Of a stretch of DNA of 64,000 nt, positions 10,607 through 26,799 are shown one piece after another. The notes under the pieces were generated by a model. The model saw only the letters and a list, made by a program, of their open reading frames with translations. It searched no databases and was not told the origin of the DNA. Source of the stretch: an uncultured Gammaproteobacteria bacterium (lineage in GTDB: Bacteria > Patescibacteriota > Microgenomatia > UBA8517); NCBI GenBank assembly GCA_964617045.1, contig CAZTVZ010000001.1:136763-200762 (forward strand), written 5' to 3'. A program made the position numbers and the translations under genes. Each line of letters opens with the position of its first letter. The first letter of the stretch is position 1.

Positions 10607-10817
10607 CAGATTGACTCCTATTGCTACAATGTAATTACCCTGATCGAAGGGAGCCGAGATAATCTTTCCTGATCAATAACTAATTTAGGGAAGGCGGAGT
10701 CTTTTAAGCCCTTTGGACTTAAAGGCAGCTTACCCACCTGGATTTTCCAGGAAAAATTAGTCCGGTTCTCCGAGACAGGGCTGACCTCGTACCCCTCCAA
10801 TTTGCGCGTATATTTGG

Positions 10818-10823
10818 TATAAT
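10818..10823 (+). promoter_or_regulatory. Putative -10 box within the recurring 11-mer TATAATTTCAT, 9 nt upstream of tRNA-Thr
   Basis: TATAAT consensus. The same 11-mer recurs at 12990 and 34854, each time directly upstream of a transcription unit. Confidence 0.5.
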
Positions 10824-10832
10824 TTCATTTAC

Positions 10833-10904
10833 GCCGGGGTAACTCAGTGGCAGAGTAGCTGTTTTGTAAACAGCAAGTCGTGGGTTCAAATCCCACCCTC
10901 GGCT
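10833..10904 (+). tRNA. tRNA-Thr (anticodon UGU)
   Basis: Manual fold: acceptor gccgggg/cctcggc, anticodon stem gctgt/acagc, loop tttgtaa, T-loop ttcaaat. CCA is not encoded. Confidence 0.8.
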
Positions 10905-12965: not shown

Positions 12966-12989
12966 AAATCAGTATAGCAATAAATCTGA

Positions 12990-12995
12990 TATAAT
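12990..12995 (+). promoter_or_regulatory. Putative -10 box (TATAATTTCAT copy 2) 9 nt upstream of the second tRNA-Thr
   Basis: The 20-mer is identical to the 10818 site apart from one base (gaTATAATTTCATTTACGCC vs ggTATAATTTCATTTACGCC). Confidence 0.5.
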
Positions 12996-13004
12996 TTCAT
13001 TTAC

Positions 13005-13077
13005 GCCTGGGTAGCTCAGTCGGCAGAGCATGTCATTGGTAATGACAAGGTCGTGGGTTCGATTCCCACCTCAGGCT
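13005..13077 (+). tRNA. tRNA-Thr (anticodon GGU)
   Basis: Acceptor gcctggg/ctcaggc (one G-U pair). Anticodon stem tgtca/tgaca, loop ttggtaa. T-arm gtggg-ttcgatt-cccac. Confidence 0.8.
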
Positions 13078-13338: not shown

Positions 13339-13409
13339 AGGGGCGTCGTTCAACGGCAGGACTACGGTCTCCAAAACCGTCAATAGGAGTTCGATTCTCT
13401 TCGCCCCTG
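13339..13409 (+). tRNA. tRNA-Trp (anticodon CCA), compact 71 nt
   Basis: Acceptor aggggcg/cgcccct. Anticodon stem acggt/accgt, loop ctccaaa. T-loop ttcgatt. Its 3' end is overlapped by the recombinase stop codon at 13380. Confidence 0.7.
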
Positions 13410-15014
13410 CAGAGTGAGATTTTGAGAGTATAAATGCATCAATTGAGCCATATAATCGGTCTTTTCTTCGGGTTCGAACCTAGAGATAATTTTATCCGTC
13501 TCAACTTTAGCAGTTTTAGCAGCCAAAAACGGTTTTGGTACGGAAATACGGACTATTTTGTTGAATAACTCAAAGTTCGAACCGATTGTCGCCAGTATCT
13601 CTCTTTTCTTTTGTAAGCTATCGGTGTGTCCAAAATGATACATCGCATAACATGCAAAATCGAAGGTTTTAGTGGATAGTTCTAGCCACTGATTTACTCT
13701 CTCACCTACATTCTTCTTTTGATCTTCAAGGCTTTTCTTCTCTGCTTTTAAGTCTTTCATTTGTCTTTCAAATTCCTCGTCTGAAAGTACTGAACCGTCT
13801 GAATTCATTGGCGAGATTTTAAGCTTAACTAAATTGTTTATCTTCTCGATACAATCACCATAAGCAGAATCAACGCTTTTGTTTACTACTGTCTGATCTT
13901 TGGCCTCTTTATCGTGTAATTCATTCAGATACTTAATGGCCCAATCTTTGAATGACTCTGGAATCTCAATCTGGGATAGCAAATAGTCTGCTTGTCTCTC
14001 AAATTCACCCACCTCAATTGACTTTTGAGTACAATGCACATTTAATCTTTTCGTACAATGATAATAGATGTATCTTGAACCATATCTATTTATTTTCTCT
14101 TCAGCAGTAACCATTCCCCCACATTCTCCACAACGAACCATACCTGTAAAAGCAAACTCTCTGGTCTTAGGTCTTTGCTTCCCTTTCCTTCCTAAAAGAG
14201 CTTGGACCTTGTCGTATTCATCACGAGTTATCATCTTTTGATGTTTACCAACATACCATTTACCACTATATTCATATTCCCCGTAATAAAATGGATTTGT
14301 AAATATCTTGTATAAAGTGTTTTTGCCTATCTCATTTCCACCAAGTCTTTTATGTTTTGTAGTTCTATAACCCCATTCTTTATTCATTATGTCCATGATT
14401 TTTAAGACGGAATAATTACCAGTCAACATTAAGTCCCATGCTTTCCTGATAAGAGGAAACTTCACAGGATCAACACCTATTGTTCTTCTACCTCTCTCTT
14501 CAGTCTTGTCATTGTAATAACCTTCTGGAACACAACCAGGCCTCCAACCATTGTTTAGTTTCGTTTGTAAGCCTCTTTTAACATTCTTGGAAAGATCCCT
14601 CAAAAACTGATTAGCCTGCCCAAATTCGATATTTAGAAGAAGTACATTATCTTGTGATTGGTATAGTCTCTGAGGCGTCACAATCACTTTTAAGAGCTCT
14701 TTCTGAAGCAACCAGCTTAATGTACCAGAGTCGACTGGGTTTCTTGATCCACGGCTCAAATCCCAAATAATTAAGCCTTGAATAGCCCCTTCTTGAACAC
14801 GTTCAACTTCTTGATTAAAGACTGGTCTTCCTGGCTGTTTTGCAGACATTGATTCTTCTGCTATTTTTTCCACTTTGAGATGATTATCCATCGCTAACTT
14901 AACCAAGACCTCTTTTTGAGACTCAAGTGAAGCCACTTGATGATCATTATCATCACTACTACGTCTAAGGTAGATATCGTATTTTAATTGTAATAATTCT
15001 TCTGGTATGTACAT
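13380..15014 (-). CDS. Large serine recombinase (integrase of the putative inserted element)
   Basis: N-terminal resolvase catalytic domain (YLRRSSDDNDHQVASLESQ, with the serine nucleophile). Recombinase domain and a zinc ribbon (RCGECGG). C-terminal coiled coil. 544 aa. Confidence 0.85.
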   Translation of the reverse strand: MYIPEELLQLKYDIYLRRSSDDNDHQVASLESQKEVLVKLAMDNHLKVEKIAEESMSAKQPGRPVFNQEVERVQEGAIQGLIIWDLSRGSRNPVDSGTLSWLLQKELLKVIVTPQRLYQSQDNVLLLNIEFGQANQFLRDLSKNVKRGLQTKLNNGWRPGCVPEGYYNDKTEERGRRTIGVDPVKFPLIRKAWDLMLTGNYSVLKIMDIMNKEWGYRTTKHKRLGGNEIGKNTLYKIFTNPFYYGEYEYSGKWYVGKHQKMITRDEYDKVQALLGRKGKQRPKTREFAFTGMVRCGECGGMVTAEEKINRYGSRYIYYHCTKRLNVHCTQKSIEVGEFERQADYLLSQIEIPESFKDWAIKYLNELHDKEAKDQTVVNKSVDSAYGDCIEKINNLVKLKISPMNSDGSVLSDEEFERQMKDLKAEKKSLEDQKKNVGERVNQWLELSTKTFDFACYAMYHFGHTDSLQKKREILATIGSNFELFNKIVRISVPKPFLAAKTAKVETDKIISRFEPEEKTDYMAQLMHLYSQNLTLQGRRESNSY

Positions 15015-15131
15015 AACTTAAATGGCCGCTCTGGTGTACTCAACTCGGATTGCTCCAAATTGCCCAAAGCGGCCATTAAAAAAGCAATCCTAACGAGCTG
15101 AGTACAATATAATTATGTGCTCAGTTTGTGC

Positions 15132-16061
15132 CTAAGTCAAGCCTACATATTCCAAACATCTATAAAATATTTCGTTGTCCCAATTCCCAAAATAATGGTT
15201 TAGGCGAAGGTTGTTTTTATCACGCTCAATACTTGTGAGCCATCTATTAATAACTTCTCTCATCACTCTATAGATATACTCCAAAGACCAGCCTTGATCC
15301 CTTAAAATTTGCACCTGCATAATAAAACCCAGGTAACATCTGTTAAGTTGTTCTTGCTTATACAAAATATGTTCCTCACCAAGTAAGGCTTCATATTTAA
15401 GCAAGTAATAAAGAAGGGATTTTCTTGCTAATCTTATTTCGTTTTTCTTGATATTATGTTTTGTTAACAAATCCTTATCTAGTAAGAAAGAAACACTAGC
15501 TTTGTTTATCATGCTACGGAATACCACTTCGTTTCGGGTTTTCGATAACGGTACGGGATTCAGATTTTCAGAGTTTTCCTTATAAGTACTACTTTTCTGG
15601 TCGTCCAGATAATTATTAGATTTAATATCACTATTTAATATATTATGTGACTGATCCTTCATGACCCCCATGAATGGATTTTCATTACTTTTTAAGTTTG
15701 CTTTTAAACCTTGATTTATGATATTTCCGATAACAGGCGAAATCTTTCTTACAGTCCCATAGCGAGATTTTCCTTCTTTGATTTCAGACTTCTTATACCT
15801 TGTAACATTAATGTATATTAGTTTTTTACTTTTGAGCTTTCTTAAAATGTATTGAACCCCACGAACACTTTTTACTCCAGCAACTTGGGTTAAGGTTTCG
15901 TTTTTTATAAAGCAATACCCATCTTTTTTAGATAGTCCAACAATTACTGCCAAAACATCTCTTTCTGATGCTTTGAGACCGACAACAGCATTTACAATAT
16001 TTGGAATAAATATAAATGGCTCCTCATTGATCGATTCTGATTCTGTCTTTTCACTTTTCAT
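15132..16061 (-). CDS. Hypothetical protein with an N-terminal winged-helix DNA-binding region (replication-initiator-like)
   Basis: LKASERDVLAVIVGLSKKDGYCFIKNETLTQVAGVKSVRGVQYILRKLKSKKLI looks like a wHTH. No other motif recognised. Confidence 0.35.
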   Translation of the reverse strand: MKSEKTESESINEEPFIFIPNIVNAVVGLKASERDVLAVIVGLSKKDGYCFIKNETLTQVAGVKSVRGVQYILRKLKSKKLIYINVTRYKKSEIKEGKSRYGTVRKISPVIGNIINQGLKANLKSNENPFMGVMKDQSHNILNSDIKSNNYLDDQKSSTYKENSENLNPVPLSKTRNEVVFRSMINKASVSFLLDKDLLTKHNIKKNEIRLARKSLLYYLLKYEALLGEEHILYKQEQLNRCYLGFIMQVQILRDQGWSLEYIYRVMREVINRWLTSIERDKNNLRLNHYFGNWDNEIFYRCLEYVGLT

Positions 16062-16260
16062 TTTTGTATTTGTTCAATGCTTCTACAGGTATTGGTTTGT
16101 AAATAATGTCAAAAAGTATCAAAAGTTTGATGCCTTGCTCTTTTGCCTCCTCAGATGGAATTTCCATACCAAACTCGCTTTTATAAATTCGCTGGTACTC
16201 TTCTACTGCTTCGTTGGATATAGACTGAGTGTTTTGCATATTAGTCTTCCAAAAAAGCAT
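16051..16260 (-). CDS. Small hypothetical protein (element cargo)
   Basis: ORF only. Co-directional and tightly packed with its neighbours. Confidence 0.3.
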   Translation of the reverse strand: MLFWKTNMQNTQSISNEAVEEYQRIYKSEFGMEIPSEEAKEQGIKLLILFDIIYKPIPVEALNKYKNEK

Positions 16261-16525
16261 TCAAAGCCCAATAAAAAGATTCTTTGTCTGCATAGTTCCC
16301 GTCGTTATGAAATTCAGAATATTTTCCAAAATTATCAAGAAGTTTGCCGTAGTTAACTCTAAGATAAACGAAACTATCATTTTTCTCGATTTCTTTCCAA
16401 TTTATCGTGCGTATTTTTTGAGAAAAACTTCGTCTGGAGTGAGTTAAGCACTTACTTATTGTTTTACCATCTTTAATTATTTTGTAAGAAAAACTGAGCT
16501 TGGAAGTTTGATTGATAATATTCAT
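16241..16525 (-). CDS. Small hypothetical protein (element cargo)
   Basis: ORF only. Confidence 0.3.
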   Translation of the reverse strand: MNIINQTSKLSFSYKIIKDGKTISKCLTHSRRSFSQKIRTINWKEIEKNDSFVYLRVNYGKLLDNFGKYSEFHNDGNYADKESFYWALNAFLED

Positions 16526-16546
16526 ATTTATAGTTGTTCTTAAGAG

Positions 16547-16783
16547 CTAAGGCTCTTCGTAAATCCTGGCTTTTAAAGCTTTTAAGTTGTCAAAGTACTG
16601 TCGGGGTTCAACGAGAAGTTCCCTCTTCCAATATTTATCAACAGATTCTTGAAGTTTCTTACTATCTTCAAAAACAAACAGAACTTTTTTATTCCCATTT
16701 GTTTTATCCAAATTAACTGGAAACCATAAAGAAAGAGTCGCCGAGAGATCTAATGAATACGTAGAGAAAATATTTATCTTCAT
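16547..16783 (-). CDS. Small hypothetical protein (element cargo)
   Basis: ORF only. Confidence 0.3.
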   Translation of the reverse strand: MKINIFSTYSLDLSATLSLWFPVNLDKTNGNKKVLFVFEDSKKLQESVDKYWKRELLVEPRQYFDNLKALKARIYEEP

Positions 16784-16877
16784 ATACGTACATACAGAAC
16801 TTACACCAACAAGTTGTCAATACAGCAAAATCGAAGCTGAAACTATGTAAAAACGGTTGATTAACGGAGTAAATATG

Positions 16878-17588
16878 TTACTCCACCATTGAAACGGGTA
16901 TCTTGAGTGATATCGAATACGTATTGTTATTCTTATTAAACTCTCCAACTTCGATGTAATCAACATCATGCTTAATTTTTTTAACCAAAGCACTTTTTGT
17001 ATTTTTCAACCAGTTATCATCGACGCCTATTCTAGGATAATTGTTAGTTACATAACGAGTTATAGACTCTTGCGGGACGTTTGCTTTGAGCCAATCCCCG
17101 GATCGCTCTATATTACCTCGGAGGAAATCAACTAATGCAGACATAAACACAAACGAGTCCGTATAGCTTTTCTTGTCTTGCGGTTTAAAATCGATGATTA
17201 GTTTGTCATCAGCAATTCGTCTTAACCAAAATCTCAATCCACTAAAGCCAAAACATTCACCAAGCTTGTATTGCTTAGGTTTTTCACTATCTACTTTAAT
17301 TTCCTTTGTATAATAGGAGATTTTTCTCTCAAGTTTATTTGCGTTTAATAGGCGAAACTCTGCCTTAATTCCATTCGTATCACTTCCAAAACGAAGAGAT
17401 CCATTGTTTTTGCCTGTAAACATTAATGCGATAATACATTCTCCTTCAAGCTCTCGTAAAATATTATATTCGTTAGGAGAAACACCACCATAATCTATCC
17501 ATTCAAACTCTTTCTCGAAATAGGCATTAGTTTTTATCTTTTGAAGCACTCCCAAATATTCTTCACAGATAGCCCTATCAAGTTTCAT
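16878..17588 (-). CDS. Hypothetical protein (236 aa) transcribed downstream of the XRE regulator
   Basis: ORF only. No recognisable motif. It is directly downstream of the XRE gene on the same strand. Confidence 0.4.
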   Translation of the reverse strand: MKLDRAICEEYLGVLQKIKTNAYFEKEFEWIDYGGVSPNEYNILRELEGECIIALMFTGKNNGSLRFGSDTNGIKAEFRLLNANKLERKISYYTKEIKVDSEKPKQYKLGECFGFSGLRFWLRRIADDKLIIDFKPQDKKSYTDSFVFMSALVDFLRGNIERSGDWLKANVPQESITRYVTNNYPRIGVDDNWLKNTKSALVKKIKHDVDYIEVGEFNKNNNTYSISLKIPVSMVE

Positions 17589-17621
17589 ATTTATTTTAAT
17601 TAAGACTATTATCTTACGAAG

Positions 17622-17840
17622 CTAATATGGAATCAAATCTTTTACCTTAACTTTCAATACTCTTGCTACCTTCTGAAGAGTCTTTAAGCTCATTCTTCTA
17701 TTACCTGTCTCAACTAAACCTATATGGGTTGTACTAACCCCAATGTCTTCAGCCAGTTGCTCTTGGGTTAATTCTGCCTGCCTTCTAAATCTTTTTATTC
17801 TTTTACCTATTCCAGAATCTTTTTTAGTTACCTTATCCAT
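17622..17840 (-). CDS. XRE-family helix-turn-helix transcriptional regulator (Cro/CI-like)
   Basis: LTQEQLAEDIGVSTTHIGLVETGNRRMSLKTLQKVARVL is a canonical HTH_3 pattern. 72 aa. It sits at a divergent junction, as phage repressors do. Confidence 0.8.
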   Translation of the reverse strand: MDKVTKKDSGIGKRIKRFRRQAELTQEQLAEDIGVSTTHIGLVETGNRRMSLKTLQKVARVLKVKVKDLIPY

Positions 17841-17951
17841 ACATTTTAAGTTAGCAGAGAGTGTGTTAAATATTTATTACGTAAAAGGAAAGAAAATGAG
17901 GCTAAAACTATTGCTTTTTTATTAACTACGAGTTATGTTTATTGTATAAAT

Positions 17952-18158
17952 ATGGCACCCAAAGTAGCTTTAATTATTTTAGTCGCAATAATCATCCTGT
18001 TACTCCAAATTCTTGCGTTTGTAGGTTTTGCAAAATCCAATGACAATAAATTAACAAACACACAACAAGATAGGTGGAAAAAGTTTTCAGAATATATGGG
18101 TATAGCGTTTCTAATATTTGGAGCAATAGTGTTTGTTATAGCTGATTTTATTGATTGA
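17952..18158 (+). CDS. Small two-TM membrane protein
   Basis: Two hydrophobic helices. Overlaps the next ORF by 4 nt. Confidence 0.35.
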   Translation: MAPKVALIILVAIIILLLQILAFVGFAKSNDNKLTNTQQDRWKKFSEYMGIAFLIFGAIVFVIADFID

Positions 18159-18622
18159 AAATGAAAAAAATTATATTTGCATTTATATGTTTTTGTCTCG
18201 GTATACTCACCTATTTAGTAATTGAACATGTGTTTCCCAAAAACATAATTTCATCTCACATAAGTAAATTTGAGATTGATACAGATATTGTTTTAGAAGA
18301 TGTTAACAATTTTCGCTTAAAAAATGATTTGAACTCTCTCGTCAAAAATGAGAATTTATGCAATGTAGCAAAGGTAAGATTAAAAGAAATTCCTTTTAAT
18401 TGGAGTCATAATGGATTTTCGGCAGCTAGATTTTGTGCTGTAAACTGTATGATGGGTGAGAACCTAGCCAAGAATTATAAAACAGAACAGTCGATCATCG
18501 ACGCATGGGAAAATTCTCCAGAGCATAAGGCCGTTATGATTAACAAAGATCTTAAGTACGGTTGCGTCGCATCAGATGGAAAATATACAGTCTTGGAAGC
18601 ATCAACAATGATTCCATATTAA
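18155..18622 (+). CDS. Membrane-anchored protein with a possible CAP/SCP-like domain
   Basis: N-terminal TM segment. SPEHKAVMINKDLKYGC resembles the CAP-domain HxxxM...GC signature. Weak. Confidence 0.35.
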   Translation: MKMKKIIFAFICFCLGILTYLVIEHVFPKNIISSHISKFEIDTDIVLEDVNNFRLKNDLNSLVKNENLCNVAKVRLKEIPFNWSHNGFSAARFCAVNCMMGENLAKNYKTEQSIIDAWENSPEHKAVMINKDLKYGCVASDGKYTVLEASTMIPY

Positions 18623-18947
18623 TTGGTGTGTCTCTCTTCTCACATATCTACTTTTTTACTTGCAAACAATTCTACGATAGACAAAGTTTTGACTATTCGT
18701 GCCTAAAATAATCAATTTACATTCAGCAAATTAAGAAGAATTTGATTAGAGGCTAATTATTAACTTTCTCCCCGATCTTTTATATATCTAGCCTTAAATA
18801 ATCGTCCTCAGATTTTATAGTAATAAGTATTCGGTAATTATTGGTTTGTGTAATATCTCGGACACCATTTCGAAAAACTGCCGATTAATTTCTAAATAGC
18901 AATTATTAAATTTAGTCTGTTTATTTGTAAAAACTAGATTATAAAAA

Positions 18948-19769
18948 GTGCTAATATTATTATTAACTATGGATAAAACTACTCTAGAATCTAATGAAGA
19001 TAACAATAGAATCACCTTTTCACTAAAAGATATTGTTGTTGGTCAAGAAATTAACCCTAACAATATGACTCTCCCCTTACTAAATGAGTTTTTGCAACAA
19101 GTTACAACGTTTTTAAAAGGGGGGAAATATATAGACTTAGCCAAAGTTAAAAGTAGCATCAAGCATGGTTCCCTGGCAATTGAAGTAAACAACAACGACG
19201 GCCTATTGGATGAAGCCTTTAATGATTATCAAATTTTGTTAAAACATGGGTCGCTAAATGATATTGATTCCAATCGTGCAAGAATCGTTGAGTTATGGCA
19301 GTCGAATAGTAAAAATAATGAAAACAGGTCTTACGATTTGTATGTCGGTGATGATTCCACGAACAATCCTCATTTCATAATATCCAGGAAAACCAACTTT
19401 ATTATGATAAACAACAACTGGGTAGATGTTGATCTCTACCTTTACGGTAAGATATTTGATCTAGGGGGTAAAAACAAACCGAATGTTCATATCGAATTAG
19501 ATAATGGTAATACAATAAAAATTCAAACTAATACAAGCCTTTTATCAACCGATGAGGAAAACAGACTTTATAAAAAACAACTAGTAAGAATAAGGGCTAA
19601 ACGTAATATCGATACAAGACAATTGAAAGAAGAAAAACTTATGTCTTTTGTCTATTATAATCCTCAATTTGACGAAAAAAGCTTCGAAGAAATCTCAGAA
19701 AAAGCAACATTGGCTTGGAAATCGGTAAAAAATCCGTCTACTTGGGTTGATGAAATAAGAGGTAATTAA
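18948..19769 (+). CDS. Hypothetical protein, likely starting at MDKTT (18969)
   Basis: ORF only. N-rich and AT-rich codon usage. Immediately upstream of the PIN-like gene. Confidence 0.4.
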   Translation: MLILLLTMDKTTLESNEDNNRITFSLKDIVVGQEINPNNMTLPLLNEFLQQVTTFLKGGKYIDLAKVKSSIKHGSLAIEVNNNDGLLDEAFNDYQILLKHGSLNDIDSNRARIVELWQSNSKNNENRSYDLYVGDDSTNNPHFIISRKTNFIMINNNWVDVDLYLYGKIFDLGGKNKPNVHIELDNGNTIKIQTNTSLLSTDEENRLYKKQLVRIRAKRNIDTRQLKEEKLMSFVYYNPQFDEKSFEEISEKATLAWKSVKNPSTWVDEIRGN

Positions 19770-19777
19770 TACTAAAC

Positions 19778-20275
19778 ATGGATAAAGATAACAAGAAAAT
19801 GACTGTCTTAGTAGATACAAGTTTTCTAATAACTTTGTATGACAAAACGAGACCTAATAATCCTACTGCGTTTAAGTATTTAAATTATTTTTTAGATAAT
19901 TTAATAGACATGTATTTATCAACAATTGTTATTTCAGAATATCAACAAATGCAACCTATTGTCGATATTATAAATTCAGGTAATTACATACCCATATCTT
20001 ATAACTACGAGGACGCTATCAAAACGGCCGAAATTGCCTACAATATTTCAGGCGAAAAACGTGGATCACGGGCAGAATTCAAAGACGATCTGAAACTTAT
20101 GGGTCAGGCAGAATTTAACAATATTACATTCATTATCACAGATGATGAAACAACCTTAGCCAAATACTGTGAAAGATTATCTGGTGCCAAGATGTTTAAA
20201 CCAAAAATTATAATTATGAGTAAGGGATTTGATTCTAGTATTTTCAATGATGGCCAAGCCTCACTAATTGAATAA
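19778..20275 (+). CDS. PIN-domain-like putative nuclease
   Basis: VLVDTSFLI start, with conserved acidic positions (D in LVDTS, E in VISEYQ, DD in FIITDDET) spaced as in PIN domains. Confidence 0.4.
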   Translation: MDKDNKKMTVLVDTSFLITLYDKTRPNNPTAFKYLNYFLDNLIDMYLSTIVISEYQQMQPIVDIINSGNYIPISYNYEDAIKTAEIAYNISGEKRGSRAEFKDDLKLMGQAEFNNITFIITDDETTLAKYCERLSGAKMFKPKIIIMSKGFDSSIFNDGQASLIE

Positions 20276-20287
20276 AAGCACTTTAAG

Positions 20288-20911
20288 TTAATATGGTGGC
20301 ATTATTTGGAAGTTTATATTTTTACAACGCTTAATAAAATATAGTCGATAGTTTTTTCTATCTTCTCTCAATCTTTTTTTATATTCTTCACAAGCTTGTT
20401 TAAAATCTTCAATTAGTCGTGCATTTATAATAAGTATCTTGTAAAGATTGCCACTTTTAAGAAATTTTATTCCGCAGGATTCTCTTTCAAGAGCAATTTT
20501 GTAATCTGATTCATTTCCAGAACCAATTACTGAAAAAGTTAATTTTTTGCCATTTTTTATCTTATATGTCTTTATTAGATATTCATGAGTTAAACCTGAA
20601 CGAATAATGTTATAGATACCATTACCAGTCGCTCTTTTTATCTTTGCAATTTCTTTCTGATAACCATGATTAAATAGCTGGTTAATAACAAAATTGAATC
20701 TTTGAGTGGCAGAGCCACGAACATCTTTGTATCGATAAAAACTGCCTAGTATTTCAATATAGTTAAAAATACCCAATGCTACCAAAAAGTTCGCTTGTGC
20801 ATTAATACTAGACCTCTTTAGATCTCCATACATCCAGCCCTGAACTGTACTAAACCTAGGAAAATACCTTTGATAATCAACGTGGTTTTCCTGGAAGGTT
20901 TCCAAATTCAT
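20288..20911 (-). CDS. Hypothetical protein (207 aa)
   Basis: ORF only. Confidence 0.4.
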   Translation of the reverse strand: MNLETFQENHVDYQRYFPRFSTVQGWMYGDLKRSSINAQANFLVALGIFNYIEILGSFYRYKDVRGSATQRFNFVINQLFNHGYQKEIAKIKRATGNGIYNIIRSGLTHEYLIKTYKIKNGKKLTFSVIGSGNESDYKIALERESCGIKFLKSGNLYKILIINARLIEDFKQACEEYKKRLREDRKNYRLYFIKRCKNINFQIMPPY

Positions 20912-20988
20912 GTTTCAACAACAATATATTCTAGAAAGCTACAAAAGTAAATCTGGCTAGAGACAACTAGTGCTTTATCCCTCAGTCT

Positions 20989-21081
20989 GTTCCATTGTGG
21001 ATGTTAAGCATTTTTAAACACCCCTCCCCACCCACTAGGACGTGCAATGATTACACAAATTGAGGTTAATTATTGAAGCAC
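20989..21081. repeat. Repeat A copy 1 (93 nt). 71 nt are identical to 24203-24273 and a 9-mer matches 24181-24189.
   Basis: Direct comparison: tttttaaacacccctccccacccactaggacgtgcaatgattacacaaattgaggttaattattgaagcac is present identically at both sites. Confidence 0.85.
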
Positions 21082-21112
21082 AGATTACAAGACTGTTACG
21101 GTTTTTAATAAA

Positions 21113-21511
21113 CTAATTTAGTAACTTGTCGGCAAGGTCCCTGATTACTTCTCCTTTTTTTGTTATCTTTACTATCATCTCATCTGTACTTTTCTTACTT
21201 AATTTTTTACCTTTTTCTTTTCTCGTAACTAATTCCCATAATTTCTTATATTCTTGAATTTCATTTGAAAGAATTATACTGTGTTTCTTAAATCTAGATA
21301 TCAAATAATCCAACCTATCAAAGTCCTTGTCATATAAAGTTCGGTATTTCATAGATTTCTCAGCTCGCTTGGTAATATCGTGAGTTTTAATATTTAACTC
21401 CATTATTTCTTTATATTTAATCTCGTTTAATTTTTGCCTTCTAAAAAATGCCAACGGAAGGATCGCAAGAACAATAGAATTTATAATTGTGAGAGCTTGA
21501 AAAATGTCCAT
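21113..21511 (-). CDS. Small membrane-anchored coiled-coil protein carried on a ~509-bp insertion between repeats A and B
   Basis: N-terminal TM segment (IINSIVLAILPLAFF) followed by a K/E-rich helical region. The flanking 9-mers ttgaagcac (21073-21081) and ttgaagtac (21582-21590) resemble a target-site duplication. Confidence 0.45.
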   Translation of the reverse strand: MDIFQALTIINSIVLAILPLAFFRRQKLNEIKYKEIMELNIKTHDITKRAEKSMKYRTLYDKDFDRLDYLISRFKKHSIILSNEIQEYKKLWELVTRKEKGKKLSKKSTDEMIVKITKKGEVIRDLADKLLN

Positions 21512-21590
21512 TCACAGATATTATACTTCAAATCACTCAAAATGATGGATTGTCGGAATCTAAAACTCATACATTTAACTTTTGAAGTAC

Positions 21591-21643
21591 TGGAATATGG
21601 CAAGACTCTTGAAGCTGTCTGTAATAAGTTTTAACATCACTTA
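21591..21643. repeat. Repeat B copy 1 (53 nt, about 81% identical to 24274-24326)
   Basis: tggaatatggcaagactcttgaagctgtctgtaataagttttaacatcactta aligns with tgggatataacaaggctcttgaagattgaggtaataagttctaacatcactta. Confidence 0.75.
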
Positions 21644-23488
21644 GATATCCCATCGGGCTATCTCTTCGGCCAGTCTTTTAAACTCACTGATAGCATTACG
21701 ACTCATGAAAGCATTGAGTTCAGAAATACTACTTGGGTAATAATTTAATTGGAGCTTGTCGATAGATAACTTTTCCCCTTCCTTCAATGAACTATTTATG
21801 TAATCATCAATCGATCCAATTCCCAATAACCACACATTCTGCTTTCTAAAAATAGTTCTAATTTTACCAATCTGAAAGTCTTTAATAACTTTTAACAAAC
21901 CAGATTTCCGTTCATAGACATACTTTTCAATCAATTTCTTATAACGCATTTGGTATAGTTTTTTGTCATCCTCGGTTAACGTACCTTGATTAAAAATTTT
22001 ATTAACTAATTTGAAAAAAGTGGTCTTAACTTCACTGTTAAGTGAAAATGTCCTTATTCCACTTTCTTTATCGTCAAGTCTCACCATTTTTCTCTTAAGG
22101 GTATTTACAGATCTAACAAATTCTTTACCGAAAAAATCAAAATCTGTTTCTTGTAAAAAGAAGTCTAAATCTACTACAAAAAAATAGTCTGTTCCTAGGT
22201 CTTTAGATAAGTCATACAGACTATGCATATATGCTTTTCCATAGCCCGCAACTATCTCTATATTTCTTTGATCCAAACTCATTTTGTTTAAGTGCTTCGA
22301 TAGAACTCCCAACGTCCTTTCAAAAAATATTTTATCTGTCGTTGATTCGACAGCTATTATTTTTCTACAAAAAAATATTTCGGGAAATGTAAGATATTTT
22401 TGTAATAATCTTTTATTCTGTAGTTTGACATGTCTCGTAAAAGTGTCTGATGTTTTTAGCAATTTTATACAATCGACTTTCGTCCACCTGATAAAAAATG
22501 TGGAGTGTGTTGCAATCAAGACTTGAACACCACGATGTGATAACTTCTTAATTTTAGAAATTACAAATGGCAATTGGGAATAATTTAAGTGCAACTCAGG
22601 TTCGTCAATTATCACAATCGAGGGCCCGACTTCTTCTATTGTTTCAAAAAAAACATTAAGGTTGTTTAGTTGTTGTTCACCAGAGCTTGCCTTTTGAATA
22701 TCTTTCCCTTTCCCATCCAAAATCATACGTGACATTTCTGGATTTCCATCATATACATATCTATAGTCGTCACTTTTTGACAGGTTGTTAATTATTGTTG
22801 TAGAATCTTCGACAACCTTGTTAAAATGCCTACTCATCGCTTTTTTGTTTTCCAAGGTTTTGAATAATATGCTTTTAAAATCAGCGTAGTTGTAAGCTAA
22901 TGACTTAATTCTTAATTTTTGTAATATTTTTCTCGCATCTAAATCTCGTGATTGATAAACATAATATATATCGTTATCAACCCTAACCAAAACTCGTTCG
23001 TTATGACTACTTCCAGACCCGATAAGTACTAATAAAAATTTTACCTTTGAATTCTTCATGTCATGCAGTTTAAGAAGACCCTCCCTTACTATTGGTTTGT
23101 CTCTGGTGTCGTCAACCAAAATCTTCTTAATGTCGACCATGCAATTTTCGTTATTTTTTGTCAAAGCGCACACCATAGTATCAGACCATACATCTTTTAA
23201 AAAACTGCTATTCAACTCAACTTCTGATGTCTCGAAAACTATATAGGGAACTTTACTGTGGTCTTCGGAGTAATATGAGCTGAACAAATTAGTCACAGAG
23301 AAAAAGTTCTTATTTCCAAGAAAATTGCCATCCAAAAAATAGGCCATTATTTGCAATAAAGTACTTTTCCCTACAGCATTCGGCCCAACGAAGATATTTA
23401 GATTTGAAGTAAGATCTACTTCGAAATCTTTAAAGCACCTTATACCATCAACAAAGATTCTTGATATGTAAGTGGAATTCAAATTCAT
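21641..23488 (-). CDS. OLD-family nuclease: ABC-type ATPase with a C-terminal TOPRIM domain (a fused PARIS AriA/AriB-like architecture is also possible)
   Basis: Walker A GPNAVGKST. Signature-like SSGEQQ. Walker B IVIIDEPELHL. H-loop LIATHS. TOPRIM glutamate in IIAVESTTDKIFFERTL and the DxD in FFVVDLDF. 615 aa. Confidence 0.75.
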   Translation of the reverse strand: MNLNSTYISRIFVDGIRCFKDFEVDLTSNLNIFVGPNAVGKSTLLQIMAYFLDGNFLGNKNFFSVTNLFSSYYSEDHSKVPYIVFETSEVELNSSFLKDVWSDTMVCALTKNNENCMVDIKKILVDDTRDKPIVREGLLKLHDMKNSKVKFLLVLIGSGSSHNERVLVRVDNDIYYVYQSRDLDARKILQKLRIKSLAYNYADFKSILFKTLENKKAMSRHFNKVVEDSTTIINNLSKSDDYRYVYDGNPEMSRMILDGKGKDIQKASSGEQQLNNLNVFFETIEEVGPSIVIIDEPELHLNYSQLPFVISKIKKLSHRGVQVLIATHSTFFIRWTKVDCIKLLKTSDTFTRHVKLQNKRLLQKYLTFPEIFFCRKIIAVESTTDKIFFERTLGVLSKHLNKMSLDQRNIEIVAGYGKAYMHSLYDLSKDLGTDYFFVVDLDFFLQETDFDFFGKEFVRSVNTLKRKMVRLDDKESGIRTFSLNSEVKTTFFKLVNKIFNQGTLTEDDKKLYQMRYKKLIEKYVYERKSGLLKVIKDFQIGKIRTIFRKQNVWLLGIGSIDDYINSSLKEGEKLSIDKLQLNYYPSSISELNAFMSRNAISEFKRLAEEIARWDI

Positions 23489-23537
23489 AAAACAGGCTTA
23501 TTTTAGTTCACCCCAGATTAAGAAGCAATCAAGGAGC

Positions 23538-24107
23538 CTATTTTGATTTTACTATGATAAAGGAAAGTCCTCCAACATATTTGTCTTTAATTCTCTGATA
23601 CTCAGTATTGCCACCCATTACTTCTCCGTCATCTTCAAATCTGGGATTTTCCACCAATGCCATGAAATGTCCACGATTCTCTTCATTCTTTCTTCTTAAC
23701 ATCGTAACAGCAGTGGAAATTCCAGGCACAGGTCTAACCCACCCATCTTCTGAATCAATAATTGGAACCTGATCTTCTACTGGTATTCCCCCTCTAATGT
23801 GTTCTATTGATTGGTCAGTATGGTTAATAATGTGATCTACTTTAAGTCCTAATTCTGGTTCAAATCTTTTGACTTCGCTTATAAACTCACCCACCTTAAC
23901 TCCCTTACCAAGCTTTAAACCTTGTTTGATTTTCGTCTCAATAGATTTTGGTAAAAGTCTATCGGGATAGAGATAATTGAAACAACTGATCAGAGAATAA
24001 TAGAAACACCCATCACCCAAATCATGAGTTTCTTTTACAAAATTACTTAATCTATCTCTTTGCATTACTCCAATAGCTCTTTCAAGCAATGGTCTATCCA
24101 TGGACAT
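23538..24107 (-). CDS. Hypothetical 189-aa protein, first gene of the OLD operon. Possibly a papain-fold/OTU-like cysteine peptidase.
   Basis: LGDGCFYYSLISC resembles the OTU Cys-box and RGHFMALVE the His-box. Weak motif-level evidence only. Confidence 0.35.
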   Translation of the reverse strand: MSMDRPLLERAIGVMQRDRLSNFVKETHDLGDGCFYYSLISCFNYLYPDRLLPKSIETKIKQGLKLGKGVKVGEFISEVKRFEPELGLKVDHIINHTDQSIEHIRGGIPVEDQVPIIDSEDGWVRPVPGISTAVTMLRRKNEENRGHFMALVENPRFEDDGEVMGGNTEYQRIKDKYVGGLSFIIVKSK

Positions 24108-24180
24108 ATTTTAACTCGCACCATTATGAGAGGCAATCTGCTCTACAACTAGGCAAGTCTAGTACTTTACTCCGCGTTTG

Positions 24181-24273
24181 GTTCCATTGGGAGTCCCAGG
24201 CGTTTTTAAACACCCCTCCCCACCCACTAGGACGTGCAATGATTACACAAATTGAGGTTAATTATTGAAGCAC
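24181..24273. repeat. Repeat A copy 2
   Basis: See repeat A copy 1. Here A is directly contiguous with B. Confidence 0.85.
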
Positions 24274-24326
24274 TGGGATATAACAAGGCTCTTGAAGATT
24301 GAGGTAATAAGTTCTAACATCACTTA
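24274..24326. repeat. Repeat B copy 2
   Basis: See repeat B copy 1. Confidence 0.75.
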
Positions 24327-24353
24327 CGACTTTCTGCAAAAAAGCTTTAGGGT

Positions 24354-24824
24354 GTGTATTATAGAATAATGGAACCAACAAGAATTCCTACTATCGAAAA
24401 AGTTAAATTGTTCCTTGAGGAATATGGATGGCATTTTAGGGAAATTGTTTCTGAAAATAAAACCTCTTTAATTTCACCTTATACTTTGGAGGGAGAAAAT
24501 AAAGGAGTTTTGATTAGTTTTAAAATCGAAGGCGAATTTGTTATGGTATCGACTGTAGACTTTCTTAAAAATATCCCAGATAGCTTTACAATAAACCTTC
24601 TTTCATTAAACGATAAGTTGAAACTAATAAAAATATTTGTCACCAGCCAAAATGGAGATAATACCGTAAATGCAGATGTTGGTTTTGAACTTTGGGATAA
24701 TTCTTGGAATAAAGAAGGATTTTTCTCATTTATGGACATGCTTTGTTTAGGAATTGAAAAAACAATCGAAATGGTTTCAACTGAAAACATTCCCCATCAA
24801 ACAAATTTTGTTACATTCTCCTAA
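24354..24824 (+). CDS. Hypothetical protein, possibly YbjN-like (putative sensory-transduction regulator fold)
   Basis: The size (~156 aa) and an alternating beta-rich pattern are reminiscent of YbjN/T3SS-chaperone-like proteins. Weak. Confidence 0.3.
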   Translation: MYYRIMEPTRIPTIEKVKLFLEEYGWHFREIVSENKTSLISPYTLEGENKGVLISFKIEGEFVMVSTVDFLKNIPDSFTINLLSLNDKLKLIKIFVTSQNGDNTVNADVGFELWDNSWNKEGFFSFMDMLCLGIEKTIEMVSTENIPHQTNFVTFS

Positions 24825-24949
24825 CTTAATAAGTTCTTAACAAAGTTAGCTAACCCCTGCTAAAACCACACTTGGGAGAGGGTTGGTTGGGTACTTCAAC
24901 ACATACTAAACTGTTGACTTTATTAATTGATAATTGAGATACTAATCTG

Positions 24950-25794: not shown

Positions 25795-26799
25795 TTACCT
25801 GTTTCTTTTCATTCGTCTCTCTTCGAAATACTCGTTTCGCATTAATTGATTGTGGATCTTCAACAAAGCGTGATACTCTATCTGCCTTACTCTTTCTCTG
25901 GTCAAGTTAAACATCTTGGCCGTTTCTTCCAATGTGTGTTTTTCGTGATCCAAATATCCAACTCTGTACAAAAATATTGTTGCATTTCTGGGATTTTTGT
26001 AAAAAATATCGTTAACCATTTTGACAATGTAATCGGCATATTCTTTTTCTTCCATGATAACTTCCTGGTTTTTCTTGCTATCCGGAATAAAGTCGGCAAA
26101 CACACTTTCTTTGTCCCCGACCGGTTCATCAAGATCGAGTACCATATTCTTGGCGTATTTAAGTTTTTTAACGTATTTGAGAGGCTTTCCCAACTCTTGC
26201 GCAATTTCTTCGTTTGTCGGCTCCGTTCCGTTAATAAGTGTCTGTCTTACAGTCATCTTGTTCATTTTTATCAAATTATCATGAACATTGGCCGGATATC
26301 GGATTATTCTCGAGTAGTTGGCCATTGCTCTTCTTATACTTTGTTCTATCCACCATGTGGCGTGAGTGGTAAATCGATTGCCCAAGGAATAATCGTATTT
26401 TCTTGCCGCAATTACCATTCCATACATTCCTTCCTGAATTAAGTCTTCAAAGGGCAAACCTTTTCCTACATATTTTTTGGCAATATTAACCACCAAACGC
26501 TGGTGGGCATCCATAAGTTGACTCATTGCCTCTCTTGCATCTTCATTGAAATCTTCTTTTTTGGCACCAATGATATCCCCTTTTCTTTCAAACAACATTC
26601 CGTTTTTAATCCTTTTTCCCAACTCAATTTCCTCTTCAAGGGTAAGATATGTGCCGTTTTCGGGAGCGCGGGCTTCCGCAAGCATCAACTTGATAGGATC
26701 TGTGGGTACATTTTCATATCTGTCTTTACCGTTTTTTCTGGACGGTAAATCGAAATCGGCAGGGATTCTGTTTTCTGGGAGTCTTTCGGTCATATGCAA
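25795..26799 (-). CDS. RNA polymerase sigma-70 family factor (regions 1.2, 2, 3, 4). Possibly the primary sigma factor.
   Basis: Region 2.4: TTHATWWIEQSIRRAMANYSRIIRYP. Region 3: EEIAQELGKPLKYVKKL. Region 4.2 HTH: TLEETAKMFNLTRERVRQIEYHALLKI. Confidence 0.85.
   Translation of the reverse strand: MHMTERLPENRIPADFDLPSRKNGKDRYENVPTDPIKLMLAEARAPENGTYLTLEEEIELGKRIKNGMLFERKGDIIGAKKEDFNEDAREAMSQLMDAHQRLVVNIAKKYVGKGLPFEDLIQEGMYGMVIAARKYDYSLGNRFTTHATWWIEQSIRRAMANYSRIIRYPANVHDNLIKMNKMTVRQTLINGTEPTNEEIAQELGKPLKYVKKLKYAKNMVLDLDEPVGDKESVFADFIPDSKKNQEVIMEEKEYADYIVKMVNDIFYKNPRNATIFLYRVGYLDHEKHTLEETAKMFNLTRERVRQIEYHALLKIHNQLMRNEYFEERRMKRNR

Follow-up and report, generated by a model that had tools for sequence, protein, structure and literature searches.

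Among the described systems with which the DNA considered here can be compared are the tycheposons of Prochlorococcus, of which 910 of 937 elements carry tyrosine recombinases and which leave partial-tRNA repeats; the same study documents successive integrations, degraded remnants that build composite islands, and mixed populations (bioRxiv 10.1101/2020.12.28.424599). Our subject is an integrative element of 10,927 bp, inserted at the 3' end of a tRNA-Trp gene in a 64-kb stretch of contig CAZTVZ010000001.1 (the window, from whose first letter all coordinates are counted), and in particular two repeated sequences, A and B, which are directly joined at one end of the element and recur in its interior, where they are held apart by a segment carrying a gene for a 132-residue protein, g132. 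Like the tycheposons, this element is integrated at a tRNA 3' end, combines a site-specific recombinase and a replication-type gene with variable cargo, and is found in a population of cells with and without it. Unlike them, it has a large serine recombinase (LSR), its attachment sites attL and attR share 5 nt only, its host is of the Patescibacteria type, and its internal repeat is not tRNA-derived.

Composite staphylococcal cassette chromosome (SCC) elements have Ccr large serine recombinases and include pseudo-SCC units without a recombinase. The element described here resembles them as an LSR-driven island at a fixed chromosomal site, in which internal repeats of the end sequence delimit cargo that has no recombinase of its own, and the growth of SCC by accretion is a further likeness. 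It differs from them in that the SCC repeats are short and include the crossover, whereas the internal copy here lacks both the crossover and the 7 nt adjoining it, and in that the repeat here is a module of 115-170 nt with a 71-nt perfect core. Phage morons, in turn, are independent units of promoter and gene lying between conserved prophage neighbours, and are defined by comparing related phage genomes. g132 is similar in standing as one small gene that has a -10 box of its own and no mobility genes, in having homologues in scattered contexts, and in lying between sequences that are contiguous in the paralogous copy. It departs from the morons in that the comparison is made here between two paralogous modules of one element, that no terminator was found 3' of the gene, and that the composition of its segment is the same as that of the surrounding element.

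The element occupies positions 13412-24338 and is absent from some members of the population. Using the first chromosomal gene to its right (g151, 24369-24824, plus strand) as a query, we recovered contigs from other samples, two of which represent the empty site: L013 (SRR31979761) and L015 (ERR15459720) open with 27-29 nt from the 3' end of the tRNA-Trp gene (13383 or 13385 to 13411), after which the sequence continues from 24334 onward. Since these contigs join the tRNA-Trp 3' end directly to 24334, the DNA between is an insertion that part of the population lacks. The two BLAST segments of both contigs overlap by 5 nt, CTGCA, the crossover overlap common to 13407-13411 at attL and 24334-24338 at attR. 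The filled site is represented by contigs L012, L008, L009 and L001. The filled L012 and the empty L013 share the same six single-nucleotide polymorphisms (25858-25936) relative to the window, and we conclude that gain or loss of the element was recent and took place within one strain background. The boundaries of the element and its polymorphism in the population are in this way observed directly, and the G+C content of the inserted DNA (0.30-0.34) is lower than that of its flanks (~0.38).

The integration target, tRNA-Trp (CCA), was located by ARAGORN and Rfam at 13339-13410 on the plus strand, and its 3' end forms attL. The LSR, of 544 residues, is encoded on the minus strand by an open reading frame (ORF; 13380-15014) that crosses attL and has its stop inside the tRNA-Trp gene; its Pfam domains are Resolvase (PF00239), Recombinase (PF07508) and Zn_ribbon_recom (PF13408). 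This domain architecture, the short shared crossover and the empty attB site are those of an LSR element. The empty-site contigs start at the first attB-specific 31-mer, and contig L014 (SRR31979760) has a similar start, at 24312, no more than 3 nt away from where the attR-specific 31-mers begin. We regard this as only a hint of a second path leaving the right end of the element in SRR31979760, possibly that of the excised circle.

The terminal copies of the two repeats, A' and B', are the last ~175 nt of the mobile element, and 7 nt separate the end of B' from the crossover. On the minus strand, starting at attR, one meets in turn B', A', g187, an OLD-family nuclease, B, g132, A, g207, backbone, recombinase and attL, and the two A-B copies bracket a 3.2-kb cargo block made up of g187, the OLD nuclease and g132. 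Ungapped alignment of A (20967-21081) with A' (24159-24273) gives 99 identities in 115 positions, and alignment of B (21575-21643) with B' (24258-24326) gives 56 in 69, all four repeats being on the minus strand. In the terminal copy as a whole (24159-24326) A' and B' are contiguous and overlap by 16 nt, whereas in the internal copy (20967-21643) A and B lie ~500 bp apart with g132 between them. A preliminary description of this locus had drawn the repeats more narrowly, A as 93 nt (20989-21081 against 24181-24273, 85/93 identical) and B as 53 nt (21591-21643 against 24274-24326, 43/53 identical), and its observation that A is directly joined to B at 24181-24326 and split at 20989-21643 by the g132-bearing segment is confirmed by our alignment. 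The window contains exactly two copies of A and two of B.

The 71-nt core of A (21011-21081 and 24203-24273) was said in the same description to be 100% identical between the copies, and it is: all 71 positions agree, while only 28 of the adjoining 44 do. Mismatches number 0 of 71 in the core against 29 of 113 in the rest of A and B (Fisher p = 3e-7), so that the core is statistically distinct from its flanks, and recent exchange and functional constraint, the two explanations offered for it, are valid alternatives. Perfect identity stops at 21081/24273, the first heterologous position, where the g132 segment starts. On its other side the homology of A, if gaps are allowed, includes a -35-like box and reaches to ~25 nt before the start codons of the downstream minus-strand genes; the ungapped A' ends ~50 nt from the next start codon, and the final gapped stretch holds the promoter-like boxes. 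From the end of the core to the ATG of the next minus-strand gene the distance is 100 nt in one copy and 96 nt in the other. The homology of B breaks off abruptly at the stop codon of the OLD gene, which forms the last 3 nt of internal B, and the 23 nt nearest the crossover are identical at 22 positions (21621-21643 against 24304-24326).

All of these junctions are reproduced in independent Logan contigs: L009 spans g207, the A flank, the core, g132, B and the OLD gene, L001 spans 21052-24232, and L012 runs from the final 30 nt of the core through B' into the chromosome. An assembly artefact is thereby excluded.

At the edges of the g132 segment, the preliminary description had noted a 9-bp repeat resembling a target-site duplication. 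Both 9-mers are present (TTGAAGCAC at 21073 and TTGAAGTAC at 21582) and the uninterrupted copy has a single one (TTGAAGCAC at 24265), but the repeat is in fact 16 nt long and imperfect, TTAATTATTGAAGCAC (21066-21081) matching TTAACTTTTGAAGTAC (21575-21590, the first 16 nt of B) at 13 of 16 positions. For a fixed pair of positions, the probability of at least 13/16 matches is 1.5e-5 (empirically 1.9e-5), and that of at least 8/9 is 2.6e-4. It is important to note that 16-nt repeats at ~80% identity are frequent by chance anywhere in the surrounding AT-rich DNA, and that the match is meaningful only because it is placed exactly on both homology breakpoints. Whether counted as 8/9 or as the extended 13/16, it is equally compatible with a decayed duplication and with pre-existing microhomology. 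Just upstream of g132 there is also a perfect 9-nt inverted repeat (TACTTCAAA at 21524-21532 and TTTGAAGTA at 21581-21589, 48 nt apart), one arm of which overlaps the right-hand boundary 9-mer while the other abuts a TATAAT box.

The segment found only in the internal copy (21082-21574, minus strand) consists of g132 itself (21113-21511), a perfect TATAAT box 8 nt before its ATG, and a 31-nt 3' tail. The g132 family comprises 22 proteins of 55-69% identity, one of them annotated from Candidatus Amesbacteria. Searches of Pfam, PADLOC, PHROG and PDB gave no assignment, and the AlphaFold2 model (predicted local distance difference test score, pLDDT, 87.5), an all-helical, generic helical bundle with a hydrophobic N-terminal helix, found no fold match. 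In other Patescibacteria the homologues adjoin NUDIX and radical-SAM genes, Shedu and another LSR, or Mrr; DNA similarity between these loci and the window goes no further than the coding sequence, and in the loci compared the homologues have neither conserved flanks nor repeats on either side. We considered a stretch at 21082-21110 as a third, degenerate copy of B and treat it as chance: the similarity is marginal (p ~0.04-0.07 against B, ~0.2 against B'), and the C-terminus of g132 that overlaps it is native to the g132 family.

The position of B' next to the crossover bears on the recombinase gene. Scans with the recombinase gave at least 277 and at least 543 confirmed matches, and we fetched 160 loci (37-64% identity), mostly from metagenome-assembled genomes of Patescibacteria. 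Of the related loci, 131 have enough downstream sequence, and in 73 of these the LSR ORF runs into a convergent tRNA gene and terminates there, most often tRNA-Asn (32), tRNA-Gln (19) or tRNA-Trp (6), with others including Tyr and Ser; an attP within the ORF, at its 3' end, thus appears to be characteristic of the clade. When the element is closed into a circle in silico, the ORF becomes one of 559 residues that reads through the reverse complement of B' and has its TAA exactly on the B'/A' junction (...GTG CTT CAA TAA). The tail of this circle-form ORF is KVVSDVRTYYLNLQEPCYIPVLQ, ending in CYIPVLQ before the stop, and the 9-mer described above provides its last three codons in frame. The recombinase would in this way exchange the terminal GRRESNSY of its integrated form for a 23-residue tail encoded by B' in the excised circle (24262-24338 region), and we infer from this a possible coding role for B' in that form. 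Internal B keeps the same frame (...LSDVKTYYRQLQESCHIPVLQKLNV before the stop), but is not in frame with the OLD gene, and no ORF feeds into it.

In the integration-dependent immunity of mycobacteriophages, attP lies inside the repressor gene and the integrase is a tyrosine recombinase. The element here is alike in having its crossover in the 3' end of an ORF, so that integrated and excised forms encode different C-terminal tails, and is unlike it in that the ORF is the serine recombinase's own and in that the tail switch is a prediction from the sequence.

Our reading of these results, to which we would give about an even chance of being right, is that A-B is the element's non-coding, attP-proximal terminal module, that its internal copy is a diverged paralogue, that two alleles of it have recombined, and that g132 marks an insertion or deletion at microhomology. 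On this reading the terminal B'A' would be the working end, next to attP; in the excised circle the final 23 codons of the recombinase ORF would come from B'. The two alleles, already diverged, would have come from related elements or from an old duplication. We infer a recombinational origin for the duplication, in which the 71-bp perfect core, standing amid flanks of 64-81% identity, would be the footprint of homologous exchange, whether by crossover or by gene conversion; a crossover would need, and thereby select, just such an identical stretch. g132 would be a moron-like unit, complete in itself, that brings its own -10 box and a start of leaderless type; its presence in one copy and absence from the other may have come about by illegitimate recombination at the 16-nt microhomology, whether the terminal copy lost it or the internal one gained it. 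Spontaneous rearrangements are most commonly deletions between chance direct repeats, and the abundance of 16-nt, ~80% repeats in this DNA means that substrates for it are ready to hand. Illegitimate insertion of such a unit would account for the difference equally well.

A number of results weigh against this reading. No donor element was seen, nor any internal att site or tRNA fragment that would mark an older junction within the element. Behind the idea of a family of modules stand two copies from a single genome: exact matching of 20-23-mers from the core gave no hits in GTDB representative genomes, JGI metagenomes or IMG/VR, searches for A and B with blastn and nhmmer found nothing in the 160 LSR-related loci, and blastn found no match in phages for the internal copy or in plasmids for the terminal one. 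A has no Rfam match, significant fold or clear terminator, and strong functional constraint would account equally well for a perfect tract of 71 nt. Finally, where the codons of B and B' differ (3 synonymous and 8 non-synonymous changes), there is no evidence of selection on the peptide that B' would encode. In the loci around homologues of g132, g207 and the OLD nuclease, the only exact matches to A or B were one of 16 nt and one of 15 nt, which we judged to be chance, and the only other carriers of A and B are near-identical strains in other samples.

There are several alternatives, the first of which takes up the question of constraint. It holds that selection preserves the identity of the core in its role as a small RNA, as an operator or upstream activating site shared by the promoters of g187-OLD and g207, or as a recombination site, with A-B marking the boundaries at which single-gene cassettes are exchanged. 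Both cores do lie ~100 nt upstream of a minus-strand gene, and a G-rich block, GGGTGGGGAGGGGTG, which is unusual in DNA of 32% G+C, occurs in the window only at the two core sites. The diverged flank of A contains a 4-5-bp stem with changes compensated on both sides (AUCC/GGAU in one copy, ACUCC/GGAGU in the other), and the A unit can be closed by GUGCUU/AAGCAC, which in the other copy becomes AAGUAC with a G-U pair; these are possible compensatory pairs, seen in two sequences. The ending of B homology exactly at a stop codon is also what cassette boundaries often show. Set against this, Rfam gave no match for A or B in a search of the window at gathering scores, nor in one of 20200-24900 at the permissive threshold of E <= 10; the fold energies of A are the same as those of shuffled sequences (z from -1.2 to +0.6 on either strand), and the two minimum-free-energy structures disagree. 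We found no clear terminator or promoter inside the core, no significant extended or attC-type inverted repeat in A and B, no recombinase besides the LSR, and no conservation of the module in any other genome or metagenome searched. We think it unlikely that selection on a functional site is what has kept the core identical.

The possibility that A is a relic of coding sequence was examined separately and rejected. On the minus strand one frame runs through B' and A' interrupted by a single stop, but the 45-residue peptide has no real homologue: against 1.84 billion representatives it found a single weak, repeat-like match (E = 1e-4), and in the fetched loci it found none. The substitutions between the copies, too, are not biased to synonymous ones.

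The second of these alternatives is that two related LSR elements integrated successively at tRNA-Trp, that internal B is the former right end of the one that bears the recombinase, and that the DNA from the OLD nuclease through g187, A' and B' is a remnant of the older, which later lost its recombinase end and the att site at the junction and was left as a pseudo-element in a composite island. That B and B' are most alike nearest the crossover (the 22 of 23 positions given above) is as expected of a conserved recombinase-binding arm, and the abrupt end of B homology at the OLD stop codon also speaks for such a history. Successive tRNA integrations with degraded remnants are, moreover, documented for tycheposons (bioRxiv 10.1101/2020.12.28.424599). 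Yet inside the element there is no second crossover, attP-like junction or tRNA fragment, and A and B have no similarity to tRNA-Trp; local alignments made to see them as a decayed part of the tRNA 3' end scored no better than shuffles. An additional deletion would be required, and it would have to end exactly at the OLD stop codon. attL and attR are not known as normal targets of LSRs, which is a further difficulty. We consider accretion of this kind an unlikely origin for the internal copy.

The preliminary description had itself proposed a different explanation for the split repeat, namely that a miniature mobile cassette of ~500 bp, carrying g132 and resembling an insertion sequence (IS) or a miniature inverted-repeat transposable element (MITE), inserted in an intact A-B and duplicated 9 bp (TTGAAGCAC). 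The microhomology lies exactly on both breakpoints, far beyond chance for a fixed position, the uninterrupted copy has the 9-mer once, the homologues of g132 are scattered over unrelated Patescibacteria contexts, and a short direct repeat does flank a segment missing from the paralogous site, as it would around an IS or a MITE. Several IS families have a target duplication of 9 bp. Unlike these elements, the segment has no terminal inverted repeats, for a repeat search found none and its ends (21082... and ...21581) match by eye at 8 of 14 positions; it is single-copy in the window; and a Pfam survey of the 59 window ORFs of at least 110 residues found a transposase domain in none of them, the sole recombinase being the LSR. 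Instead of a clean 9 bp, the repeat has 16 nt, of which 13 match, and the homologues share the coding sequence only, without conserved ends or flanking repeats. Nor did we see any polymorphism of g132 itself: the contigs of the same strain from other samples have the same filled arrangement (as in L009), and what is polymorphic is the 10.9-kb element as a whole. As far as the data reach, then, there are only two copies of the module and no empty/filled polymorphism for g132, which is the outcome that had been named as telling against the cassette, and we find transposition very improbable. The looser suggestion of a hotspot for cassette exchange is tenable as a description, and the region does lie in mobile DNA that is present in some members of the population and absent from others.

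We give very little credence to the proposal that the A core and B form a dedicated cassette-boundary element of Patescibacteria LSR elements, a cis site or small RNA at which single defence and accessory genes of a leaderless type (g132, g187-OLD and g207) are swapped in and out beside attP, with the 9-16-nt GTGCTTCAA(TAATTAA) motif as the exchange point in an integron-like exchange of cargo without an integron integrase. Integron cassettes are comparable in being single-gene units separated by repeated non-coding modules, and in the boundary of B at a stop codon; unlike an integron, the window has no IntI tyrosine recombinase in the Pfam survey, its A-B forms no attC-like hairpin, its genes have promoter-like boxes of their own, and there are two modules only.

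Our conclusion is that the split repeat is an ordinary rearrangement of mobile-element cargo, in which the perfect core is the one unexplained detail. The stakes are modest, and lie in what the locus shows of how the cargo end of a small integrative element is built in a bacterium of the candidate phyla radiation. Here diverged copies of an end module flank single-gene units that include an OLD nuclease, an arrangement that would provide a route for the shuffling of defence genes in reduced genomes. Of wider use is the LSR clade, which is widespread in Patescibacteria, targets tRNA 3' ends and has its attP inside the recombinase ORF, and one member of which is caught here both filled and empty in natural samples; LSRs with defined attB/attP pairs are sought as tools for genome engineering. 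If the core proved to be a functional site of exchange or regulation, it would offer a new handle on cargo turnover in these elements.

g207 (20288-20911, minus strand) lies directly downstream of internal A and has no match in Pfam, PADLOC, PHROG or PDB; its nearest homologue is 73% identical and stands in a different context. The OLD-family nuclease (21641-23488, minus strand, 615 residues) has an ATPase and a TOPRIM domain (Pfam AAA_15, AAA_21 and OLD-like_TOPRIM; PADLOC GajA and Old). No GajB-type helicase partner is present, and its closest homologues, at 61% (contig L010) and 47% (L011) identity, are both stand-alone. Directly downstream of A' on the minus strand is g189 (23538-24107), called as 187 residues from its second ATG and hence referred to as g187, for which the same four databases gave no family or structure match. 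g187 precedes the OLD nuclease, 50 nt upstream of it, and the OLD homologues in L010 and L011 are without such a partner. A -10-like box precedes the start codon of each of g132, g187 and g207 by 0-11 nt, and the three look like separate transcription units of a leaderless type. The homologues of g132, the OLD nuclease and g207 occur each alone in unrelated contexts, so that these genes evidently travel as single units, though by no recognisable transposition machinery.

Two of the related loci contain a structured RNA. LOOT RNA (Rfam RF03000) was found in Patescibacteria-type contigs at 8874-8994 of L003 (minus strand, 80.8 bits) and 5502-5616 of L006 (plus strand, 68.5 bits). In L003 it lies between a gene block on the Shedu side and a pair of helix-turn-helix (HTH) and LSR genes, 2.5 kb from the g132 homologue. 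In Rfam's description, LOOT is recorded only from unclassified metagenomic sequence. We considered LOOT as a relative of A and rejected it, the matches being real but unrelated to A in sequence. In L002, downstream of a g132 homologue, ~500 nt without a called gene (1179-1691) open with a G+C-rich start, GGGGTGACGCGAATTGACGGGGAC..., and had no Rfam match at the gathering threshold.

Direct repeats were also seen in other loci of the LSR clade. In L063 (2022-2096 and 11496-11570), L074 (462-535 and 11485-11558) and L077 (4319-4378 and 12206-12265), repeats of 60-75 nt at 86-96% identity have one copy at the 3' end of the LSR gene and the other 8-11 kb from it. They probably represent att repeats, containing part of the target tRNA, by which the elements concerned are delimited. 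Repeats of ~125 nt near the LSR genes of L047, L140, L153 and L155, which we had considered as modules analogous to A-B, are really the C-terminal domain of adjacent paralogues: in L047 the two copies (752-873 and 1237-1361, ~500 nt apart, upstream of LSR genes) encode a shared domain ending ...GVSSARKF, and L140, L153 and L155 have its equivalents.

The backbone of the element, between g207 and the recombinase, includes a replication-initiator-like protein of 309 residues (15132-16061, minus strand), which matches PHROG 270, 'replication initiation protein', at E = 6e-7 and Pfam HTH_36 at E = 7.7e-5, the latter below the gathering score (22.9 against 25 bits), and an XRE-type HTH regulator (17622-17840, minus strand; Pfam HTH_3, E = 7e-13). 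No backbone relatives of the element were found in IMG/VR by way of the replication protein and g187. The element also carries a CAP-domain protein. Outside it, a 40-nt repeat of 88% identity (10809-10848 and 12981-13020) covers the upstream region and first bases of two tRNA-Thr genes (TGT and GGT), including a TATAAT box.

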